Below are positions 2,828 to 12,804 of a stretch of 64,000 bases of DNA, piece by piece. Origin of the DNA: Verrucomicrobiota bacterium (GTDB taxonomy: Bacteria; Verrucomicrobiota; Verrucomicrobiia; Limisphaerales; JADLHS01); assembly GCA_025350905.1 (NCBI GenBank), contig JANXWY010000254.1:365-64364 (forward strand), given 5' to 3'. Position numbers and translations under genes: made by a program. Within the stretch, counting starts at the first letter, position 1; every line of letters begins with the position of its first letter. The notes under the pieces are model-generated. The model ran no database searches and was not told the DNA's origin. It worked only from the letters and a program-made list of their open reading frames with translations.

Positions 2828-4993
2828 TTACGGGCCGAGCAGCAACCGGTGGATTTCCCGGGCGTCTTTCGTCGGCGGCTGACACGCCCTGCCGGTGCAG
2901 AGATAAGCGACCGGGCCGTTTTTTGCCGGTAAGGTGCGGGCGAATTCCTCCACGGCGCCGGCGTTGCCCAGCACGATTATGTTCGGTTGATAAACCGAAT
3001 GTGCCGCGTGAATCAACTCCCGGGCCTCGACCGAACCTGGATCGCCGGCAATGACGACCCGGCGCGGCTCGTCCAGTGAGAAATCCAGCGCGTGCAGCAG
3101 GTAAGGCAAGGCCTGTGGGTGTTGCTCCAATCGCGGCCCAAACAGGCGCAGCGTGGTCTCGGCGGCTTGCCGAAAATCAGCCCGGTCAGTAATGGCCGCC
3201 AGTTTCAAGAGTGCGAGGGTGGCGACGGAGTTGCCGGACGGTTCGGCCCCGTCGTAATCATCCTTCACCCGCAGGATGAGATCGGGCGAATCCGCCGCAC
3301 TTTGCCAAAACCCACCATGCTCCGTGTCATAAAATTTTGCGAGCATCGTCTCGGCGAGCGCGCTGGCGAAGTCGAGGTGCTTGGGCTCAAGCGTCGCTTC
3401 GTAAAGTTGAAGGACGCCCTCGAGCTGGAAGGCATAGGCTTCGAGCAATTGCACGTTGTCGCGCGCGCCATCACGCCAGCGGTGGTACAGTGTCCGGGAT
3501 TTCGCATCCCAGAGCCGTGCTTGAATAAACGCCAGGTTTTTCTCCGCCACCGTGAGATAACTCTCGTCCCCGAGCACCGCAAAAGCCCGCGCCATGGCAC
3601 CGAGCATCAGGCCGTTCCACGAGGCGAGGATTTTGTCGTCGAGTTGGGGGCGGCTCCGATGGTTGCGCGCCTTCAACATTTTCTGCTTGGCGGAAGCTAA
3701 GAGCGGCTGATCTACCGGGCGGAGGTCGGGATCAGCAATGTGCAACACGTTTTGGCCCGCCAACGGCGACGGATGGCTGTGGTCCACAAAGTTACCCGGC
3801 TTCGTGATCCCGAAATAACCGGCCGTCACGTTGAATTCCTCTGGCGTCAGTAATCCTGACAACTCTTCGTGCGTCCAGCAGTAGAATTTCCCTTCGTGCC
3901 CGTCGCTGTCGGCGTCTTCGGCGGAATAAAAGCCGCCCTCCGGATGCGTCATGTCGCGCCGGAGATAACCAATGATGTCGCGCGCCCGATCGGCGACCCG
4001 CGGTTCGCCGCTGACGAGATACGCATCGAGATAGAGATGGAGCAACTGCGCGTTGTCGTAGAGCATTTTTTCGAAATGCGGCACCCGCCATTCGGCATCC
4101 ACGGAGTAACGGGCAAAGCCGCCGCCGAGTTGATCATGGATGCCGCCGGCGGCCATGCGGTCGCACGTGTGCAAGGTCATGCGCGTGGCTGCGGGGTCCT
4201 GGAAGCGCCGGGCGTAACGCAACAGAAGCGCCGGCTGGCTCGGCTGGGGAAATTTGGGCGCCCCGCCGAACCCGCCGTTCCGCGGGTCGTAGGCTTCCAT
4301 GAACACCGCGCCCGCACGCCTCAGGGTGTCGGCGCTCGGGCTGGGGCCGGCGGCCACGACGGGCGCCGTTGCCAGTTTGAGGCGGTCGCGAATTGCATTC
4401 GCGGACGCGGCGACCTCACCGTGGCGCTCCTGCCAAACCTCGGCGATTTTCTGCAGGGTGGTGAGGAAGCTGCCGCGGCCGTGGCGGTCGTCCGGCGGAA
4501 AATAGGTGCCGCCAAAGAACGGCTTGCGGTCCGGGGTCAGGAAAACGTTCAGCGGCCAGCCGCCGCCACCCGTGGTGGATTGCACGAACGTCATGTATAT
4601 CTTGTCGACGTCCGGACGCTCCTCGCGGTCCAGTTTGATACTGATGAAATGTTCCCGGAGATAGCCGCCGATTTTTTCGTCCTCGAAGGATTCGCGTTCC
4701 ATGACGTGACACCAATGGCAGGTCGAGTAACCGATGCTGAGAAAGATGGGTTTGTTTTCCGCTTGCGCCCGGGCGAAGGCCTCGTCGCCCCAGGCGAACC
4801 AATCCACGGGATTGTGCGCGTGCTGCAGGAGGTAGGGTGATTTCTCGCCTGCGAGGCGGTTGGTGTGCCGGGGTGAAGGGGGCTGGTTGGTGTTCATGGC
4901 GGAGTCGGGTTTGGTGTGGTGGCGGGAGCCGTCGCACGCGCTCAACCCGACCGCCAGGGTAGTCGCCAAAAAGCAAATCGCCGCGAGTTGCAT
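2828..4993 (-). CDS. thioredoxin-domain protein, YyaL/DUF255 family, probable lipoprotein
   Basis: Contains [13 protein letters not shown]...[14 protein letters not shown] (thioredoxin-like CxxC) followed by a long alpha/alpha-toroid-like region. I prefer the ATG at 4993, which gives [20 protein letters not shown] with a lipobox, over the ORF-track start at 5035. Confidence 0.85.
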
Positions 4994-5089
4994 TCGGTAC
5001 CGGGAGAGCGTAGCGGTCCCCGCCCCGCGGCCCAAGGGAAACCTGGCGCATTCCGATGCTGTCGGGCGGACGCCGGCGGCCCCGGGCCC

Positions 5090-5123
5090 AATAAAAAACG
5101 GAGCCTGCGTCTCGCAAGCTCCG
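5090..5123 (-). terminator. rho-independent terminator downstream of the RRM protein gene
   Basis: On the minus strand, cggagcttgcg-aga-cgcaggctccg forms an 11-bp stem including one G-U pair, followed by ttttttatt. It lies 22 nt after the stop codon. Confidence 0.7.
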
Positions 5124-5144
5124 CTTTGAAATCAAGCTGATTGC

Positions 5145-5489
5145 TCAGTAGCGACCGCGACCGCCACCACCGCCGCCGCTTCCCCCACCGTACTCGCGCC
5201 GCGGGCCGCGACCACCCCCGCCGCCGCCGGGCGGACGTTCCTCGCGCGGGCGGGCGACATTGACCGTCAGGGCGCGGCCGTCGAGTTCCTTGCCGTTCAA
5301 CGCCTCAATCGCCTTTTGCGCTTCTTCTTCTGAACTCATGGTCACGAACGCAAAGCCGCGCGGGCGGCCCGACATCCGGTCCATCATCAGGTTGGTTTCC
5401 ACGACCGAGCCGTGCGCCGCGAAGGCGTCCTGCAAGTCGTTTTCGGTGATTTTGAAGGAGAGGTTTCCAACAAACAGTTTCGTGCTCAT
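5145..5489 (-). CDS. RRM-type RNA-binding protein with Gly/Arg-rich tail
   Basis: RNP2 motif LFVGNL, RNP1 motif RGFAFVTM, and a C-terminal GGGGGRG... tail. Confidence 0.85.
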
Positions 5490-5714
5490 TGCTGCAATGT
5501 CCTAGACGGTACCGTGCTATCTCCCGACTGTTCCCGACCACCGGGTTTCAAATCATCACTGAACCGAGTTCACTTGAAGATTTACCATGCCGTGAAAGCG
5601 ACACGCTATCTATCAGACGGCGTTACCCTGACAGGTTCAATTCCAAGTTCAAGCGGGAAATACTGGAAATTTTCCCGCTTTCCTGGGACGAAAATTTACC
5701 TATCGTCTGGGACG

Positions 5715-7109
5715 ATGTTTTCGGAAATCAAGTCAGTTCACTTTGTCGGGCTCTGTGGCACGGCGATGGCCGCGACCGCGGTGGCTCTAAAGCAGCGCGG
5801 GTTTGCCGTGACCGGCTCGGACCAAAGCGTTTATCCGCCCATGTCCACATTTCTGGCCGAGCGTCAGGTCGCGGTGATGGATGGGTACGCCGAGCGCAAT
5901 CTCGCGCACCGGCCCGACCTGGTGGTCATCGGCAACGCCATTTCGCGCGGCAATCCGGAGGCGGAATACACGCTCGACCATAAGCTACGTTTCTGTTCGC
6001 TGCCGGATTTGTTGCGCGAATTTTTTATTCGCGGGAAACGCTCGATTGTCGTTGCCGGCACCCACGGCAAAACCACCACGACCTCGCTGCTGACGTGGGT
6101 GTTCGAGCACAACGGATTGAATCCGAGCTATCTCATCGGCGGCATCCCCAACAATCTCAGTCAGGGCGCGCGCTTCACGGACAGCGAATGGTTCATTATC
6201 GAGGGCGACGAATACGACACGGCGTTTTTCGACAAACGCAGCAAATTTATTCATTATCTGCCCGAAGTTGCGATCCTCAACAATGTCGAATTCGATCACG
6301 CGGACATCTTCGCCGACCTGGCCGCGGTGCAGCAGACGTTCCGCCATTTTCTCCGGCTGGTGCCGCGCAACGGGCTGCTGCTCGGCAACGGCGACGACCC
6401 CAATGTCGCGCCGCTGCTCGACGTGAATTTCTGTCCCGTGAAACGATTCGGCCTCAGGGAGCATAACGCCGTCCGCGCCACCAACGTGCGGCTCGGCCCG
6501 ACCGCCAGCGAGTTCGAGATTCCCAGCGCCAAATTTCACTTGAACCTGGCCGGCGAATTTAACCTGCGCAACGCTCTCGCCGTCGTTGCGGCCGCGAAAC
6601 ACTGCGGGTTGTCCAACAAACAAATCCAGTCCGCCTTCGACACGTTCAAGGGCATCAAGCGGCGCATGGAAGTCCGCGGCATTGCCGGCGGGGTGACGGT
6701 GATTGACGATTTCGGCCATCATCCGACGGCCATCCGCGAGACGCTCCGCGCGTTGCGCATCAAGTATGCGAAGGAAAAAATCTGGGCGGTTTTCGAGCCG
6801 CGCAGCAATACCACGCGCCGGAAAATCTTCCAGAGCGAACTCGCTTATTCTTTTGCCGATGCTGACGGCGTGGTCGTGTCGCAAATTGCGCGCCTGGAAT
6901 TGCTCGCCCCGGAGGAGCGATTGAACCCGGAGCAGTTGATGGCTGATTTGAAGACTTTGGGCAAGGACGCCGCGTATTTGCCGGACGCGGACGCCATTGT
7001 TGCGCACCTAGCGATAAAGGTGGAAGGCGGCGACATTGTCTGCGTCTTCAGCAATGGCGGCTTTGGCGGCATTCACTCGAAGTTGCTCGAACGGTTGGGG
7101 CGGAGGTAA
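5715..7109 (+). CDS. mpl: UDP-N-acetylmuramate:L-alanyl-gamma-D-glutamyl-meso-diaminopimelate ligase
   Basis: From ATG 5715: MFSEIKSVHFVGLCGTAMAA...VYPPMSTFL...AGTHGKTTTTS...EGDEYDTAFFDKRSKFIHY...NNVEFDHADIF...SNGGFGGIHSKLL. This aligns along its whole length with my recollection of E. coli Mpl. Confidence 0.85.
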   Translation: MFSEIKSVHFVGLCGTAMAATAVALKQRGFAVTGSDQSVYPPMSTFLAERQVAVMDGYAERNLAHRPDLVVIGNAISRGNPEAEYTLDHKLRFCSLPDLLREFFIRGKRSIVVAGTHGKTTTTSLLTWVFEHNGLNPSYLIGGIPNNLSQGARFTDSEWFIIEGDEYDTAFFDKRSKFIHYLPEVAILNNVEFDHADIFADLAAVQQTFRHFLRLVPRNGLLLGNGDDPNVAPLLDVNFCPVKRFGLREHNAVRATNVRLGPTASEFEIPSAKFHLNLAGEFNLRNALAVVAAAKHCGLSNKQIQSAFDTFKGIKRRMEVRGIAGGVTVIDDFGHHPTAIRETLRALRIKYAKEKIWAVFEPRSNTTRRKIFQSELAYSFADADGVVVSQIARLELLAPEERLNPEQLMADLKTLGKDAAYLPDADAIVAHLAIKVEGGDIVCVFSNGGFGGIHSKLLERLGRR

Positions 7110-7364
7110 TCGGTTCCCAATCCAACCCGTTTGCCCGGCGCCAGAGCATCGGAGGCGAATGCGGGAGCCCATCGGTTGGGACGGGGAGGCGAGACGCCCG
7201 CCGTCTCCGTTTGCTTTCTAGCGTGTCCGGTGGCTGCCGGTAGCGGGTGTCGGAGCGCCCGGAGCAATCGCTTGCGATCCAGCAACGGCGGGGCCAAATC
7301 TTCAGTCTTACCGCAAACTTCGCGTGAGCCTTTTCGCTTCGCCCGGTCCAATCGACTGAAGCCT

Positions 7365-8648
7365 ATGAACACTTACGCATACGAAGCGGTAGACGCCGCG
7401 GGCGCAAGTTCTGCCGGCGTGTTGGAGGTCGCCAGCCAGAGCGAAGCGGTCCGGCGCATCAAGGAAATGGGGTTGTATCCGCTCCGCGTCGCCCAGCGCC
7501 ATAAGCACCGGTTCCACAGAGTCCTGGCCAAACCGCGACCGAATTTTCGGCGGGGAAGTTTTTCGATTCCGCGTTTCGGCCAACGCGTAAAACCCGCGGT
7601 GCTTACGGTCTTGACGCGGCAGATCGCGACGCTGGTGGACGCCGGCTTGCCGCTGCTGCGGGGACTGAGAATTCTGGCGCAACAGGAAACCAACCGCACG
7701 CTCAAGCGAATCCTGGGTGAGGTGGGCGCGCAGATCGAAAGTGGCAGCCAATTTTCGGAGGCGCTCGCGGCGCATCCGAAGGTATTCAACCGGCTGTACG
7801 TGAACATGGTCCGCGCCGGCGAGCTGGGCGGGGCGTTGGAGATCGCCCTCCGACGGCTCGCGGAGTTCATGGAGAAGGCGCAGAAGATCAAAGGCAAGGT
7901 GAAGTCCGCCCTGTTTTATCCGGCGGCAGTGATGACGGTCGCCACGGCGATCATGGGCTCGATGCTGGTATTCGTCATCCCGCGGTTCAAGGAGGTGTTC
8001 AGCGGGCTGACCGGCGGGGCCCCGCTCCCGGCCTTCACGACCCTCGTACTCAAGGTCAGTGATTTTACGAAACAGCATTTCGTCATTGCCCTGCTGACCC
8101 TCGTGGCGGTGGGAATTGCCCTGACCTTGGCCGGGCGAACCAGAACGGGGCGGCTCGCGTTCGACCATTTGAAACTGAAGCTTCCGGTTTTCGGCCCGGT
8201 ATTTCGCAAAGCGGCGATCTCGCGGTTCGCTCGGACGCTGGGGACGTTGTTGAACAGCGGGGTGCCGGTTTTACAAGCCTTGACGATTGTGCGGGAGACC
8301 GCGGGCAACTCGGTGTTAGGCAATTTGATTTCGCGGGTTTATGACGGCGTCAAGGAAGGCGAGCCCATCACCGCGCCCTTGCGATCGTCGTCCATCTTCC
8401 CGCCGATGATTGTCGGCATGGTGGACATTGGGGAACAGACCGGCGCTTTGCCGGATATGTTGCTGAAGATCGCCGATGGCTGCGACGACGAGGTGGACAA
8501 TGCGGTGAGCGCCATGATGTCGTTGCTCGAACCGATCATGATTGTGTTCCTGGCAGTCGTGGTGGGCAGCATCGTCATCGCGATGTTTCTGCCGATCATC
8601 GGCATCATGACCGGCCCCGGCATTGGCGGCCCGGGGGATACCGAATGA
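7365..8648 (+). CDS. type II secretion / type IV pilus platform protein (GspF/PilC family)
   Basis: From ATG 7365. There is an internal duplication of the T2SSF domain (LTRQIATLVDAGLPLLRGLRIL and FARTLGTLLNSGVPVLQALTIV) and three hydrophobic segments. Confidence 0.8.
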   Translation: MNTYAYEAVDAAGASSAGVLEVASQSEAVRRIKEMGLYPLRVAQRHKHRFHRVLAKPRPNFRRGSFSIPRFGQRVKPAVLTVLTRQIATLVDAGLPLLRGLRILAQQETNRTLKRILGEVGAQIESGSQFSEALAAHPKVFNRLYVNMVRAGELGGALEIALRRLAEFMEKAQKIKGKVKSALFYPAAVMTVATAIMGSMLVFVIPRFKEVFSGLTGGAPLPAFTTLVLKVSDFTKQHFVIALLTLVAVGIALTLAGRTRTGRLAFDHLKLKLPVFGPVFRKAAISRFARTLGTLLNSGVPVLQALTIVRETAGNSVLGNLISRVYDGVKEGEPITAPLRSSSIFPPMIVGMVDIGEQTGALPDMLLKIADGCDDEVDNAVSAMMSLLEPIMIVFLAVVVGSIVIAMFLPIIGIMTGPGIGGPGDTE

Positions 8649-8774
8649 CCGGATCGGGGTTGGTCAAGAGTGGGTTGCCGGTTAGGGAAAAGTGCAGGTT
8701 TCTCACTCCGAGAACGTGGCGCCTCCCCGCGCCTTTTGGTCAGCGGCGCTAGGCAATCCGCCCAATACCTTTTC

Positions 8775-10016
8775 CTATTTCAACGCCTGATAATATCCCG
8801 TCTGGAATGCCGCGAAGAAATTGTGTTCGTTGAATGGGAAGTGCTGCGCGAAGGCGATGGCCACGACCCGCTCCTTCGGATCAACCTGGCAATAAGTCGT
8901 CGCCGCGCCGTACCAGCCGAATTGTCCAATCGACGACGGCATTGAGAGTTGACCGAGATCCGTCGTCACTTCCACGCCGAGCCCAAAGCCCTTCTGCCGG
9001 GTCGCCACCTGGTTGTTCGGCAACGTCACCAGATGATTCGCCGTCATCAACTCGACCGTCTTCCGTCCCAGGAGGCGGTGGCCTTCGAGCGAGCCTCCGT
9101 TGCAGAGCATTTGCGCAAACCGGGCGAAATCACCCGCCGTGGAGAAGATTCCCGCGCCGCCCGCTTCAATGCCGCGTCCCGCCTCCGGCCAGGTCTCGAC
9201 GATCGGTTGATCCTCCACGAACTTCCCGTCCGTCCCGTGTTTGTAAGTTTTGGCGAGGCGATTCATCTTTTCCGGCGGCACATCGAAGCCCGTGTCGTTC
9301 ATGCCCAATGGCCGGAAAATCCGTTCCTCCAGAAAGGCGCCGAACGTCTGGCCCGACACACGCTCGATCACTGCGCCCAGCACGTCTTGATTAATGCCAT
9401 AGGTGTAAGCGTCGCCGGGCTGATGCATGAGCGGCACCTGGGCGAGCTTGGTGATGAAGTTGGTCAACCCCGGCCCGCTCCACAGGTTCGCGTCGCGCCA
9501 CATTTTTGCGAGTTCCGCGTTCGTGGTGGAGAAGTCATAGAACAGCCCGCTGGTGTGCGTCATCAGATGTTTGATGGTGATGGGCCGCTTGAGCGGTTCG
9601 AGTTGCGGCACGTGCGCCGTGCCGCCCTTCCAGACCGTCATGTCCTTTAACTCCGGCAGATACTTCGCCACCGGATCATCCAGATTCAACCGCCCCTCCT
9701 CGACCAGCACCAGGGTGGCGACGCTCGTGATCATCTTCGACATTGAATACACTCGGCAAATCGTGTCGCGCTCCATCGGCAACTGCCGCTCCACGTCGCG
9801 ATAACCGTAGGTCTGGAAATCCACGATCTTCCCGTCGCGCGCCAGTAACGTGATGATGCCCGCATGCTGGCCTTCGCCCACGAACCGCTTCACCGTGGCG
9901 TGCAACACCGTGAGCCGCTCCGGCTCAAACCCCGCCGTCTCGGGCGAAGCCGTCGGCAATTGCGCCCGCGCCGAAACCGCCACGAGAAACGTCAGAGAAA
10001 AGAAAATGGATTTCAT
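8775..10016 (-). CDS. serine hydrolase, beta-lactamase/esterase family, secreted
   Basis: Signal peptide MKSIFFSLTFLVAVSARAQ, S-x-x-K motif in YSMSKMITS, and a length of 413 aa typical of the class C-like/EstB family. Confidence 0.8.
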   Translation of the reverse strand: MKSIFFSLTFLVAVSARAQLPTASPETAGFEPERLTVLHATVKRFVGEGQHAGIITLLARDGKIVDFQTYGYRDVERQLPMERDTICRVYSMSKMITSVATLVLVEEGRLNLDDPVAKYLPELKDMTVWKGGTAHVPQLEPLKRPITIKHLMTHTSGLFYDFSTTNAELAKMWRDANLWSGPGLTNFITKLAQVPLMHQPGDAYTYGINQDVLGAVIERVSGQTFGAFLEERIFRPLGMNDTGFDVPPEKMNRLAKTYKHGTDGKFVEDQPIVETWPEAGRGIEAGGAGIFSTAGDFARFAQMLCNGGSLEGHRLLGRKTVELMTANHLVTLPNNQVATRQKGFGLGVEVTTDLGQLSMPSSIGQFGWYGAATTYCQVDPKERVVAIAFAQHFPFNEHNFFAAFQTGYYQALK

Positions 10017-10335
10017 ACGAGCGAGGATTTAAGCGGAAACATTGGTCGTCGTCGCGGAAAATTCGCGAAAAAATCGCGGCGTAAAATGTGCCACGACTGT
10101 TTCAATGGCCCGCTTCATACCCGCTAAGGGCAGAGACCTGGTTTATCGGGAATGCAAATCCATGAGGGCCGACGGGGCGGTTTATCGTGCCGTGATTGGG
10201 TGCGGCGGAACCCCCCCCCGCGGCCTTCCATGGGCGGGATAATTTGGCCTTCCGCCCAAATTGGGCTTGGACCCTTTACTCTGGGCGTTGCCTTGGTCTG
10301 GCATACAGTCACGCGGTCGGCGGCTGGGGGCGACG

Positions 10336-10519
10336 GTTGCTCAATACAGCCACTTCCCGATCTTCCCGTCAGGACTCAATACTACGCCTTGACGGCGAAA
10401 GGCCCAGCACATGTAGCTAATGCTCACGAAGAAGGATGCGGGTAAGCGGTTCGCGGCGCAGATTTTCACGCCCAGCGGCGTCGTCTTGCCGCCGAATCCC
10501 ATCGGGCCGATGCCGAGTT
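10336..10519. repeat. direct repeat copy 1 (184 bp), homologous to 11682-11865
   Basis: Hand alignment with offset 1346 shows 165 of 184 identical positions and no indels. The longest identical block is 36 nt at 10479-10514. Confidence 0.9.
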
Positions 10520-10541
10520 TGGTCGCAGCGGCGGCGTCCAT
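10341..10541 (-). pseudogene. displaced 3' fragment of the class I fumarate hydratase alpha-subunit gene
   Basis: Translation ...LGIGPMGFGGKTTPLGVKICAANRLPASFFVSISYMCWAFRRQGVVLSPDGKIGKWLY matches the C-terminus of the intact gene at 11687-12565 except P/L and F/Y. It has the same stop codon. No upstream gene body is present. Confidence 0.8.
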
Positions 10542-10547
10542 TTACTT

Positions 10548-10871
10548 TTATCGCCTATCCGGATCAAACAATTCCGACCTCATCTGGAGCTGCTTGATGC
10601 TGTTGGTCGCTACGTCCTGCATTCTGATTCCCGCTTCGCCGCAGAGCAGAGCCACATACCAGAGGACATCGGACAGCCTATCCTGGAGCTCACTCGTTTG
10701 AACCGCCGCCAGAGTGAACTTTCCAGATGTCGATGCTGTGCTCAGCAGTGAACTGATCTTCCCAGCTTCTTCCTGCAATCCGGAAACGGGAAGAAGTATT
10801 CGGTCCCGATTGTTGCGCAGCGAGAGCGGCAATTTGGTCGCGGTAATTTGATATTCTTCGAATGTTTTCAT
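10548..10871 (-). CDS. MazG-like all-alpha NTP pyrophosphohydrolase family protein (107 aa)
   Basis: Pattern FEEYQ..A..T....GLQEEAGK......ELQDRLSDVLWYVALLCGEAGI......N..KL..R matches the small MazG/NTP-PPase fold. The first metal motif reads E-A-G-K where E-A-G-E is usual. ATG start with a GGAAG upstream. Confidence 0.6.
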   Translation of the reverse strand: MKTFEEYQITATKLPLSLRNNRDRILLPVSGLQEEAGKISSLLSTASTSGKFTLAAVQTSELQDRLSDVLWYVALLCGEAGIRMQDVATNSIKQLQMRSELFDPDRR

Positions 10872-10916
10872 CGTAATCTTCCGTCGAGCCGTGCGCCCAC
10901 CTAGCCTGCAGATGGT

Positions 10917-11567
10917 TCAGTTCATTGCCCGTTCGGGAATCATTAGACCGGAAGCAGATGCCTTGGATAGCAAGGCATCCAGATTTTCCAGACAGAAGCG
11001 CGACCAGGATTCGTAAGCGCCAGCATCTTTCATAGCTTCATCCACCGGAACGAATTCGGGAGCTACGATCCCACTGCGCCGTCCGACGATGGCCTCGTCT
11101 GTGACAAGCATGACATGCACGACTCCAAAATGAACATAGCCAACGTCTGTGCTGTCATCGTTGATCACCGCAACAGCCGCGTCGTTCGTTTCGTTAATGT
11201 CAACCTCCTCCATCAATTCGCGGCGCATGCCGTCGTGGTATCCGTGCTGGTTAGAAAACAATCCATGATCTTCCTCTGAAATGTGCCCGCCCACTCCTAC
11301 GGAAAACAACCCGTGCAACCTAGTTTCCTGCCCGCCTTTGCCCCGGCGATACCGCAGTAATTTCCCGTTACACAAGATAAGAACGTAGGGAATGAGTTGT
11401 TTGTAGCGCTTGTCGTGTTCGGCCTCGCTTCGGTTGAGATACAGAATATTTGAACTGGCGGTGACGACCGGCAGATATTTATCAACGTCAAGATTCAGTC
11501 CTTGAAACACCCCCGGTTCTTCGAGAAGTTTCCGTTCAAAACAAAGCACTCGTTCTTCAGCAGCCAT
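10917..11567 (-). CDS. Nudix-fold protein, COG4112/YmaB-like (216 aa)
   Basis: YKQLIPYVLI...RLHGLFSVGVGGHISEED...MRRELMEEVDI...INDDSTDVGYVHFGVVHV resembles the YmaB-type predicted MutT-family phosphoesterase. The REUxEE core (RELMEE) is present, but spacing from the upstream G...E is longer than the canonical Nudix box. Confidence 0.6.
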   Translation of the reverse strand: MAAEERVLCFERKLLEEPGVFQGLNLDVDKYLPVVTASSNILYLNRSEAEHDKRYKQLIPYVLILCNGKLLRYRRGKGGQETRLHGLFSVGVGGHISEEDHGLFSNQHGYHDGMRRELMEEVDINETNDAAVAVINDDSTDVGYVHFGVVHVMLVTDEAIVGRRSGIVAPEFVPVDEAMKDAGAYESWSRFCLENLDALLSKASASGLMIPERAMN

Positions 11568-11681
11568 TTGTCGTTTTTCTGTTTATTTGTCCAATGTTGG
11601 AATCCGCCTCCAATCATTGCGAGCAAAAATTATTTTTGTTGTTTGTGCCCTATTCAGAGGTTGTTCACATTCGCGGCAACC

Positions 11682-11865
11682 GTTACTCAATACAGCCACT
11701 TCCCAATCTTCCCGTCAGGACTCAATACTACGCCCTGACGGCGGAAAGCCCAGCACATGTAACTGATGCTTACGAAATACGATGCGGGCAGGCGGTTCGC
11801 CGCGCAAATCTTCACGCCCAGCAACGTCGTCTTGCCGCCGAATCCCATCGGGCCGATGCCAAGTT
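11682..11865. repeat. direct repeat copy 2 (184 bp), forms the functional 3' end of the fumarase alpha gene
   Basis: See copy 1. The 36-nt identical block is at 11825-11860. Confidence 0.9.
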
Positions 11866-12565
11866 CGTTTGCCGTCTTCAGGATGTCCTGCTCCAACTCA
11901 TCGAGTTCGGGAATCGGATTGCGGTCGGGAATCGGTCGCAGAAATTGGGTCTTGCTCAGCTCGTAGCCTGTAGCGCGGTCGCCGCCGATGCACACGCCGA
12001 GGATGCCGGGCCCGCAGCCTTTACCCTGCGCCTGCAAGACCGCGTCCAGGATCGCCTTGCGGCAGCCGTCGAGGTCGCGATTGGCATTGAGCTTTTCGTT
12101 CGGCAGCGAGTATTGCGCGCCGACGTTCTCGCAGCCGCCACCCTTGAGCGCGAGCCGCACGGAAATTTCCGGCGAGCGATGCTGATGAAAATGAAACGCC
12201 GGCGCGCCCGGCCCGACATTCGTGCCGTCGTTCTTCCCCGTGAGCGAATCCACGGAGTTCTGGCGCAGGAAGCCTTTCTTGGTCGCGAGCGTCACCGCCG
12301 CGCGCGCGGTGTCGGCGAAAGTGATCTGGTCGAAGCCGACCGGGCAATCCACATAAAATAAAATGCTCCCCGTGTCCTGGCAGATGGGTTGCGACTTGTT
12401 TTTTGCGAGCGCGATGTTCTGATCAATGATCTTCATCGCGTTCTCGGCAATCGTCCCTTTCTTTTCCTGTTCGAGAGAGTTTAAAATCGCCTGGTGGACG
12501 TCTTCAGGGATTTCCGTGGAAGTGCGGCGAATCAATTCCAGCAGAGAGACGGGTAGTTCAGTCAT
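11687..12565 (-). CDS. Fe-S hydro-lyase alpha subunit (class I fumarate hydratase / L-tartrate dehydratase alpha)
   Basis: 292 aa with QDTGSILFYVDCP, GGGCENVGAQYSLP and IGPMGFGGKTT motifs of the two-subunit class I fumarase/TtdA family. No beta-subunit gene is adjacent. Confidence 0.85.
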   Translation of the reverse strand: MTELPVSLLELIRRTSTEIPEDVHQAILNSLEQEKKGTIAENAMKIIDQNIALAKNKSQPICQDTGSILFYVDCPVGFDQITFADTARAAVTLATKKGFLRQNSVDSLTGKNDGTNVGPGAPAFHFHQHRSPEISVRLALKGGGCENVGAQYSLPNEKLNANRDLDGCRKAILDAVLQAQGKGCGPGILGVCIGGDRATGYELSKTQFLRPIPDRNPIPELDELEQDILKTANELGIGPMGFGGKTTLLGVKICAANRLPASYFVSISYMCWAFRRQGVVLSPDGKIGKWLY

Positions 12566-12608: not shown

Positions 12609-12804
12609 ACTGCGCGGCGAGGGGTGCGACTGGAAGTGGCGGTCCGTGTGGTAGAACGGCTCGCGCTGCGAGCCGTCGTGCCGCGCCCAGCGGCACGTCC
12701 GAGTCACCGCACGTTCCGCCCGCTCGGCGCGGGCGGAGTGTTCGCAGCGCGAACACTCCTACCACCCGGGTTGACCGCCACTTCTGGTCGCACTGCGCGG
12801 CGAG
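12609..12804. mobile_element. MITE-like nested-palindrome element with flanking direct repeats
   Basis: Terminal inverted repeats at 12624-12654 and 12759-12793 pair as 7+12+7 bp. They enclose four perfect hairpins: 12656-12676 (9 bp), 12677-12697 (8 bp), 12716-12736 (8 bp) and 12735-12759 (up to 11 bp). The element is flanked by the direct repeat actgcgcggcgag at 12609-12621 and 12792-12804. Confidence 0.5.

Follow-up and report, generated by a model that had tools for sequence, protein, structure and literature searches.

Here we report on a co-oriented gene pair, encoding a Nudix protein and a MazG-like protein, within a 64,000-nt stretch of contig JANXWY010000254.1 (assembly GCA_025350905.1) from a bacterium of the Verrucomicrobiota; the whole of this stretch is called the window. 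The two genes form a real unit that recurs and is mobile, and that is not a recognised system. With moderate confidence we read it as a mobile accessory cassette for the pyrophosphohydrolysis of (deoxy)nucleoside triphosphates, (d)NTPs, with an optional and probably non-catalytic MazG-fold partner. Three points are of note: the altered MazG site, a strict one-way linkage between the two genes, and a cassette architecture in which gene ends are duplicated. The reality of the genes, their family membership, the states of their motifs, the one-way linkage, the variability of their contexts and the flanking target duplications are supported directly; the substrate, a physical interaction of the two proteins and the biological role are what we infer.

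On the minus strand of the window, the fumarate hydratase gene fumA is followed by 119 nt of non-coding DNA, an open reading frame (ORF) of 216 aa, a 45-nt gap, an ORF of 107 aa, 21 nt, and a partial copy of the fumA 3' end. The features are listed in that order; below, WIN denotes the window locus and L with a number denotes a related locus.

11687-12565, minus strand: intact gene for the fumarate hydratase (class I) alpha subunit (fumA), the insertion target (Pfam Fumerase 4.2e-69, TIGR00722)
11675-11872, minus strand: direct repeat copy 1, the functional fumA 3' end plus 12 nt past the stop codon (repeat search)
11568-11674, minus strand: conserved 5' region of the cassette, read as a promoter/operator (conservation across >100 loci)
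10917-11567, minus strand: YmaB/TM1382-family Nudix gene, 216 aa (homology, fold, motif)
10872-10916, minus strand: intergenic spacer, 45 nt (ORF borders)
10548-10871, minus strand: gene for the MazG-fold protein, 107 aa, all-alpha NTP pyrophosphatase superfamily (predicted fold, alignments)
10527-10547, minus strand: short cassette tail, from the MazG-like stop codon to repeat copy 2 (junction comparison across loci)
10329-10526, minus strand: direct repeat copy 2, a displaced fumA C-terminal pseudogene fragment inside the ORF at 10341-10541 (Pfam Fumerase 5.4e-14)

A first-pass annotation, made from the sequence alone, had described a co-oriented pair of these lengths, 45 nt apart, as the only cargo of an islet, and both the ORF coordinates and the flanking repeats bear this out. 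The repeat search of the window shows that the islet is bounded by a 198-nt direct repeat with copies 88% identical; copy 1 holds the last 61 codons of intact fumA, the displaced fragment aligns with positions 221-268 of the Fumerase profile, and the Nudix and MazG-like genes are the sole cargo between these two diverged fumA 3' ends. GC content is ~0.60 outside the islet and 0.52-0.53 across it, and the window genes neighbouring the cassette are housekeeping genes. A tRNA or tmRNA as insertion target was rejected, the window containing none. In metagenome contigs, the depth of the islet equals that of its flanks. The two genes are probably co-transcribed; among 58 pairs, the gap from the Nudix to the MazG gene ranges from -3 to 53 nt (median 40).

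Over 61 codons the two fumA copies differ at 21 nt and 4 aa, giving a nonsynonymous divergence (dN) of 0.033, a synonymous divergence (dS) of 0.54 and a ratio (omega) of 0.06. Because the differences are mostly synonymous, both copies appear to have evolved as working gene ends, one of them in another lineage. An in-situ target-site duplication followed by decay was considered and rejected for the window, since the displaced fragment differs almost only at such sites. Prophage e14, which lies in icd with an icdC fragment, is a precedent for insertion at a gene 3' end, and the likeness extends to an intact target gene, the cargo, a displaced C-terminal fragment and copies that differ mainly at synonymous sites (PMC13626634). 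We propose that a self-contained Verrucomicrobiota cassette of ~1.15 kb, comprising its own putative promoter/operator, the Nudix gene and the MazG-like gene, would have entered the fumA 3' end as e14 did icd, with the second 61-codon allele displaced beyond the cargo.

Repeats of this kind are not peculiar to the window. Direct repeats of 40 nt or more flank 7/61 real units, against 1/115 control positions taken from the same loci (p=0.003). In three loci (L109, L011 and L029) the Nudix unit is bracketed by copies of the final ~40 codons of a full-length GyrB-type gene, and further copies of the GyrB end separate other orphan cassettes. Small arrays of orphan genes downstream of a full-length GyrB-type gene were seen at L011 8394-12413, L029 9793-16070 and L162 2460-8703, where a partial copy of the gene's last 30-135 nt comes after each cassette, the copies having a common 3' end and a variable 5' start. 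At L090 it is the 5' end of the downstream gene that is duplicated. In L020, whose fumA is 84% identical to that of the window, the interval 3654-8262 holds fumA, a 160-aa orphan gene, a fumA 3' fragment (4351-4479) and then genes for an AAA_21 ATPase and a GmrSD-type restriction protein; here the Nudix/MazG pair lies ~1 kb upstream of fumA and not at its 3' end.

The cassette itself starts ~105-125 nt before the Nudix ATG and ends 11-28 nt past the MazG stop codon (WIN, L109, L011). The window and other loci resemble each other in DNA sequence only in the ORFs and ~105 nt upstream, and neighbouring genes are almost never common to different Nudix loci. The varied contexts, the flanking gene-end repeats and the lack of nearby nrd genes agree with the earlier proposal that the pair is mobile cargo rather than a member of an nrd operon. 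The cassette differs from e14 in its size of only ~1.15 kb, in having neither integrase nor excisionase nor a conserved terminal motif, and in carrying the same cargo to at least two target genes (fumA and gyrB) and to other local duplications; the tandem arrays with repeated gene ends at gyrB, in contrast, count among its likenesses to e14-type elements. Movement could have occurred through the remnant of an integrase-bearing element, by trans-mobilisation, or by Campbell-type homologous integration of circles.

The GyrB-end arrays of L011, L029 and L162 are integron-like in layout, yet no attC or integrase is visible in them. An integron cassette was rejected as an explanation, the flanking repeats being the coding 3' ends of fumA and gyrB and no attC-like inverted repeat being present at the cassette ends. 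Repeats of other kinds were also noted near these genes. At L006, positions 5278-10371 form a dense array of ~286-nt repeat units (88-96% identity) around the Nudix/MazG pair and several small ORFs, and a 385-nt block at 6210-6593 is repeated at 9301-9678. Just upstream of fumA in the window lies a nested inverted-repeat element (12624-12793; arms 12624-12644/12773-12793 and 12644-12693/12720-12769) with 300-760x cover in metagenome contigs against ~10x for its flanks, from which we take it to be a multi-copy repeat in this community, resembling repetitive extragenic palindromes (REP) or miniature inverted-repeat transposable elements (MITE).

A genome scan with one genome per species returned 80 Nudix loci, 61-80% identical to the window Nudix, all of them in Verrucomicrobiota-type metagenome-assembled genomes (MAGs) save for obvious mis-binnings and one from the Kiritimatiellae; the cassette is found in Verrucomicrobia of soil and sediment. 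An intact, co-oriented MazG-like gene lies directly downstream in 13 of these loci, truncated or frameshifted remnants of one are present in 3-4, and 62 have none, leaving the Nudix gene without a MazG-like partner in ~80% of related genomes. A survey from the MazG side covered 70 metagenome loci; here every MazG-like gene with at least 500 nt of upstream sequence had a Nudix gene immediately upstream, and several further N-terminal MazG remnants were found. The pair thus recurs outside this genome, as full pairs or remnants in the species genomes and at ~60 metagenome loci. The linkage is one-way: the MazG-like gene depends on a Nudix neighbour, not the reverse. The pairing suggested by the first-pass annotation is therefore recurrent, but the association runs in one direction only and the Nudix gene is usually alone.

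On the Nudix tree, full, remnant and absent MazG states are interleaved, and since decaying remnants are also seen, the pair was probably ancestral to the clade, with the MazG-like partner lost many times. One MAG (SMAG_U4403) carries two diverged Nudix copies on separate contigs (L063 and L077), 72% and 69% identical to that of the window, and genomes can therefore hold more than one. A C-terminal '...PERVM' tail on the Nudix protein is present in 24/55 sequences with a MazG-like partner and in 16/63 without (p=0.05), a comparison confounded by phylogeny and not used as evidence.

This distribution bears on the idea of a toxin-antitoxin-like pair, in which the Nudix protein would act as a toxin that depletes nucleotides, with the MazG-like protein as its antidote. 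Small, adjacent, co-transcribed genes in variable regions, one of them pseudoenzyme-like, fit such a pair. One-way linkage argues against toxin-antitoxin logic, however: intact Nudix genes do without a partner in most genomes, MazG remnants decay beside intact Nudix genes, and the gene order and own-promoter layout lack autoregulatory antitoxin features. We consider this explanation very improbable.

Both cassette genes are real and under purifying selection, the ratio dN/dS against homologues being 0.07-0.11 for the Nudix gene and 0.09-0.17 for the MazG-like gene (approximate values, as dS is saturated). The Nudix protein has 4446 database relatives, the best of them 75-81% identical and from Verrucomicrobial MAGs; IMG gives Verrucomicrobial and Bacillus or phage homologues alike the name 'predicted NUDIX family phosphoesterase'. 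It scores 18.5 bits against Pfam NUDIX (PF00293), below the gathering cut-off of 21.1, and some close homologues have a precomputed PF00293 match. NCBIfam yielded no match for the protein, and PHROG 8902 (phrog_8902, function unknown) matched at 1.7e-30. TM1382 (PDB 3E57) is the only solved relative by sequence (E=1.2e-21). The AlphaFold2 (AF2) model (predicted TM-score, pTM, 0.77) has the Nudix alpha/beta/alpha fold, and its 37 Foldseek matches to PDB Nudix structures at E<=1e-3 are headed by 3E57 (E=5e-11), ahead of YfcD, RppH and NUDT22. The Pfam and structure checks proposed earlier thus gave a sub-threshold family score together with a Nudix fold and the catalytic residues.

A chain of homologues leads from the window Nudix to an SPbeta-type phage protein and on to the latter's relative P0509 of Bacillus glycinifermentans, which lies directly after nrdI-nrdE-nrdF (Flavodoxin_NdrI, ribonucleotide reductase large subunit, ribonucleotide reductase small subunit) and downstream of ymaF-miaA-hfq. 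As P0509 occupies the position of YmaB behind nrdI-nrdE-nrdF, we take it as the YmaB orthologue. BLASTP aligns it with the window Nudix over 189 residues at 32% identity (E=2e-23), with the blocks YKQxIPYV, GGxExRLH, GGH, RELxEE, INDD and WS(R/Q)F in common. These matches, together with that to TM1382, uphold the earlier description of the protein as YmaB/COG4112-like, and by sequence we place it in the YmaB/TM1382 (COG4112-type) family, with which it shares full-length homology, an N-terminal extension, the YKQxIPYV and GGH motifs, a long loop and an intact REUxEE core.

The Nudix box of the protein reads G93-x5-E99, 16 residues, then R116-E-L-M-E120-E121, and does not match the canonical 23-residue spacing (Gx5Ex7REUxEExGU); G93, E99, R116, E117, E120 and E121 are invariant among 36 relatives. 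An intact REUxEE core behind an unusual 16-residue spacing had been pointed out at the outset, and both stand, but other proteins share the spacing: a loop of similar length is present in TM1382 and the YmaB orthologue, which makes it a family trait and not a lesion. The intact core suggests that the Nudix protein is catalytically competent, and homology suggests (d)NTPs as substrates, converted to (d)NMP and pyrophosphate (PPi). YmaB is a Nudix protein of the nrd operon for which preliminary dNTP pyrophosphohydrolase activity is reported (PMC5960316). In Bacillus subtilis it belongs to an nrdI-nrdE-nrdF-ymaB operon; the window Nudix, in contrast, is unlinked to ribonucleotide reductase genes, and no nrd genes were found near it or in the annotated related loci. 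Unlike YmaB, it is carried by a mobile cassette that brings a conserved promoter along, and it belongs to a clade restricted to the Verrucomicrobiota, in which a minority of genomes couple it to a MazG-fold partner. In the reading that we favour, the Nudix protein would hydrolyse (d)NTPs and thereby trim or clean the deoxynucleotide pool.

The MazG-like protein belongs to a much smaller group, with 144 relatives in a word-index search. A profile search of 1.84 billion cluster representatives returned 4 at E<=1e-30, 54 at E<=1e-10 and 3163 at E<=1e-3, as for a very narrow family within a large superfamily. Its Pfam scores are below threshold for both MazG (PF03819, 19.3 bits against a cut-off of 22) and MazG-like (PF12643, 18.7 against 27), and it matches PHROG 229 (phrog_229, 'MazG-like pyrophosphatase') at 1.5e-6. 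The AF2 model has four helices (pLDDT 82), and almost all of its top 40 Foldseek matches are DCTPP1/RS21-C6, HisE, MazG or DR2231, with probabilities up to 1.0, TM ~0.55 and weak E-values of ~0.04. The modelled structure points to the all-alpha NTP pyrophosphatase fold. Small MazG enzymes (DCTPP1/RS21-C6, the integron iMazG of PDB 2Q5Z/2Q73, YpjD and phage MazG) have the same length of ~105 aa and the same four-helix fold, and their GLxxEAG and DVLWY motifs are recognisable in the protein.

Its acidic residues depart from this pattern. The motifs read E34-E35-A-G-K38 and E61-L-Q-D64-R65-L-S-D68, and the nearest relatives outside the family (30-33% identity) have the canonical GLxGEAGEV...ELGDVLWY where the MazG-like family has GLQEEAGK...DRLSDVLWY. 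In HMMER alignments to iMazG, 4QGP and YpjD, K38 falls on the second Glu of ExxE and R65 on the Glu of ExxD, and alignment to canonical MazG proteins identifies the ExxD motif of the family as R65-L-S-D68, not E61-L-Q-D64. The EEAGK reading of the first acidic motif in the first-pass annotation is thus correct, while its statement that a second motif, ELQD...D, is retained is not, as R65 aligns with the Glu ligand of ExxD.

The exchange holds across the family. In 63 distinct full-length members, the residues at the relevant positions are as follows.

Position 38: K or R in 61/63 members
Position 65: R or K in 63/63 members
E35: kept in 57/63 members
E61: kept in 58/63 members
D68: kept in 61/63 members

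In Mycobacterium tuberculosis MazG, Mg2+ is held by E119, E122, E138 and D141, the positions altered or kept here, and the Glu of ExxD also binds the metal in Escherichia coli MazG (PMC10014863). The four-acid Mg2+ set ExxE...ExxD is incomplete in the window protein, with K38 and R65 filling 2/4 ligand positions; by sequence, half of the canonical metal site is exchanged for positive charges, family-wide and under selection. An invariant N-terminal SLRN(N/D)RDR motif (SLRNNRDR in the window) is specific to this family, an addition to the small MazG plan, and the MazG-like gene is found only downstream of a YmaB-like Nudix gene. The earlier checks on Pfam and structure come out here as sub-threshold Pfam scores, a predicted superfamily fold and a disrupted canonical metal site. 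The MazG-like protein is most likely a pseudoenzyme or a mechanistically altered nucleotide binder, and we propose that this optional partner may tune the Nudix protein or bind a related nucleotide.

The same residues bear on whether the two proteins are independent, fully active house-cleaning pyrophosphatases with complementary substrates that are merely co-transcribed. Both folds belong to NTP pyrophosphohydrolase superfamilies, and the MazG-like protein keeps E35, E61, D64 and D68 and is under purifying selection. Basic residues occupy two universal Mg2+-ligand positions throughout the subfamily, however, which speaks against the ordinary second hydrolase assumed earlier, and strict dependence on a Nudix neighbour is unexpected for an independent enzyme. 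We think that two separate activities are quite unlikely.

The ~105 nt upstream of the Nudix ATG are conserved across >100 loci in otherwise unrelated contexts, and in the window this region extends exactly to the repeat border. It contains TGTGAAYAAC-like and TGTGAATAAC-like repeats, TTTTGCTCG, CAACATTG, TCAnnATTG, GAAAGGCAAA and a purine-rich stretch before the ATG. Two or three direct repeats resembling TGTGAATAAC or GTTAACA recur at intervals of about one helical turn, an arrangement suggestive of a dedicated transcription factor. A structured RNA or riboswitch before the Nudix gene was rejected: no Rfam match was obtained for the region at E<=1, and RNAalifold gave zero consensus pairs for 26 diverse upstream regions. 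With neither an Rfam match nor conserved RNA structure, we read it as a putative portable DNA promoter/operator.

The first-pass annotation had speculated about a conflict-related function, and an anti-phage module is accordingly among the explanations to be weighed: the pair would deplete dNTPs or destroy phage-modified nucleotides, with the MazG-like protein as a second hydrolase or a sensor. Depletion of dNTPs is well established as a means of defence. The pair travels as mobile cargo and occupies insertion hot spots, and the conserved operator suggests inducible expression. The fumA 3' hot spot of L020 carries the AAA_21 and GmrSD genes mentioned above, and other copies adjoin nSTAND1, PIN/HNH/kinase or Zeta_toxin/Metallophos genes. 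Some neighbourhoods are thus defence-like, and MazG domains are predicted, though not validated, as defensive (PMC13092281).

Against it, no PADLOC-DB v2 family matched either protein at E<=1. PADLOC families matched at E<=1e-5 numbered 89 for 150 genes within 2.5 kb of the unit and 200 for 150 genes 5.5-10 kb away, the distal control being not fully independent of the same region, and enrichment in defence islands was rejected because matches are not higher beside the unit. The proposed neighbourhood survey thus gave no support to a defence association. Many contexts are plainly housekeeping, including ordinary metabolism genes, and others are prophage or defence-like. One copy lies within a prophage, the Nudix gene mostly stands alone, and there is no obvious sensor/effector logic. 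Literature searches on COG4112, TM1382 and Nudix+MazG defence returned nothing describing this pair, which, as had been said of it, is not a named defence system. The dGTPase and dCTP deaminase defence enzymes are, like the cassette, accessory and mobile and probably act on the dNTP pool, but they have no sequence relationship to it, and the cassette shows neither a PADLOC match nor defence-island enrichment. A conflict role is possible but unsupported by present evidence, and we regard an anti-phage module as unlikely.

The prophage copy belongs to a second set of observations, consistent with a phage- or mobile-element-derived moron or counter-defence set that would supply or rebalance nucleotides for element replication or degrade host immune signalling nucleotides. 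Distant homologues of the Nudix and of the MazG-like protein occur commonly in phages, and phage and prophage Nudix homologues sit in replication or nucleotide-metabolism modules: that of Listeria phage LIS04 adjoins primase and helicase genes, and that of an Acinetobacter phage adjoins exonuclease and dCTP deaminase genes. In an SPbeta-like prophage of Peribacillus asahii (L168 1166-9475), a YmaB-like Nudix gene (P0440) in a nucleotide-metabolism block follows intein- or intron-split ribonucleotide reductase genes, and the block runs on with thymidylate synthase, dihydrofolate reductase (DHFR) and an Apyc1-type anti-Pycsar gene of the metallo-beta-lactamase fold. A lone Nudix gene, its product 75% identical to that of the window, lies between the large terminase and Mu-type portal genes of a Mu-like prophage (L003/L004 956-11120), and the insertion architecture of the cassette matches that of e14. 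On the other side, close relatives of the two proteins are absent from the IMG/VR scans, phage genes are lacking around most of the 80 genome loci, and a non-exhaustive check found no phage record with both proteins. An origin of this kind is also improbable in our estimate. In the same terminase/portal interval of L003/L004, a gene for a 1509-aa S8 peptidase with Ig domains is wedged alongside the lone Nudix gene.

We return to the preferred reading, a mobile accessory (d)NTP-pyrophosphohydrolase cassette with an optional partner, for which pool sanitation or control, defence and an element-serving function are possible roles. Several points weigh against it. The low synteny could in part result from a general fluidity of these MAGs. 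The cassette contains no recombinase, and the junction comparison revealed no conserved terminal motif. No joint skipping the 1346-nt unit was found in contigs of four metagenome runs, which as assembler contigs record presence only. The enzyme activity of YmaB is itself described as 'preliminary' (PMC5960316). E61 and D64 lie one helical turn upstream and could rebuild the metal site, in which case the MazG-like protein may still be catalytic.

A bolder proposal joins the insertion architecture with the altered metal site. A recombinase-less or trans-mobilised cassette system of the Verrucomicrobiota might stack units of 1-2 genes at the 3' ends of core genes (fumA, gyrB/parE), each trailed by a copy of the gene end, integron-like functionally and not by homology; its Nudix/MazG cargo would be a regulated nucleotide-depletion switch in which a metal-dead MazG-fold sensor or sponge controls a YmaB-type dNTPase in phage conflict. 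We regard this combination as a long shot.

Members of the YmaB/COG4112 Nudix family are found widely, among them those of Bacillus nrd operons and many large phages, yet the family is almost uncharacterised. A clade that has left the ribonucleotide reductase context, is carried in a self-promoted cassette and has gained a MazG-fold partner whose metal site is rebuilt or dead offers a natural experiment on the role of the Nudix enzyme and on the use of a pseudo-pyrophosphatase. Present evidence supports only an accessory role in nucleotide metabolism; if the pair is truly defensive or counter-defensive, it would be a new nucleotide-based module. Cargo bracketed by diverged core-gene ends, together with the gyrB arrays, points to a little-described way for accessory genes to reach the chromosomes of Verrucomicrobia.

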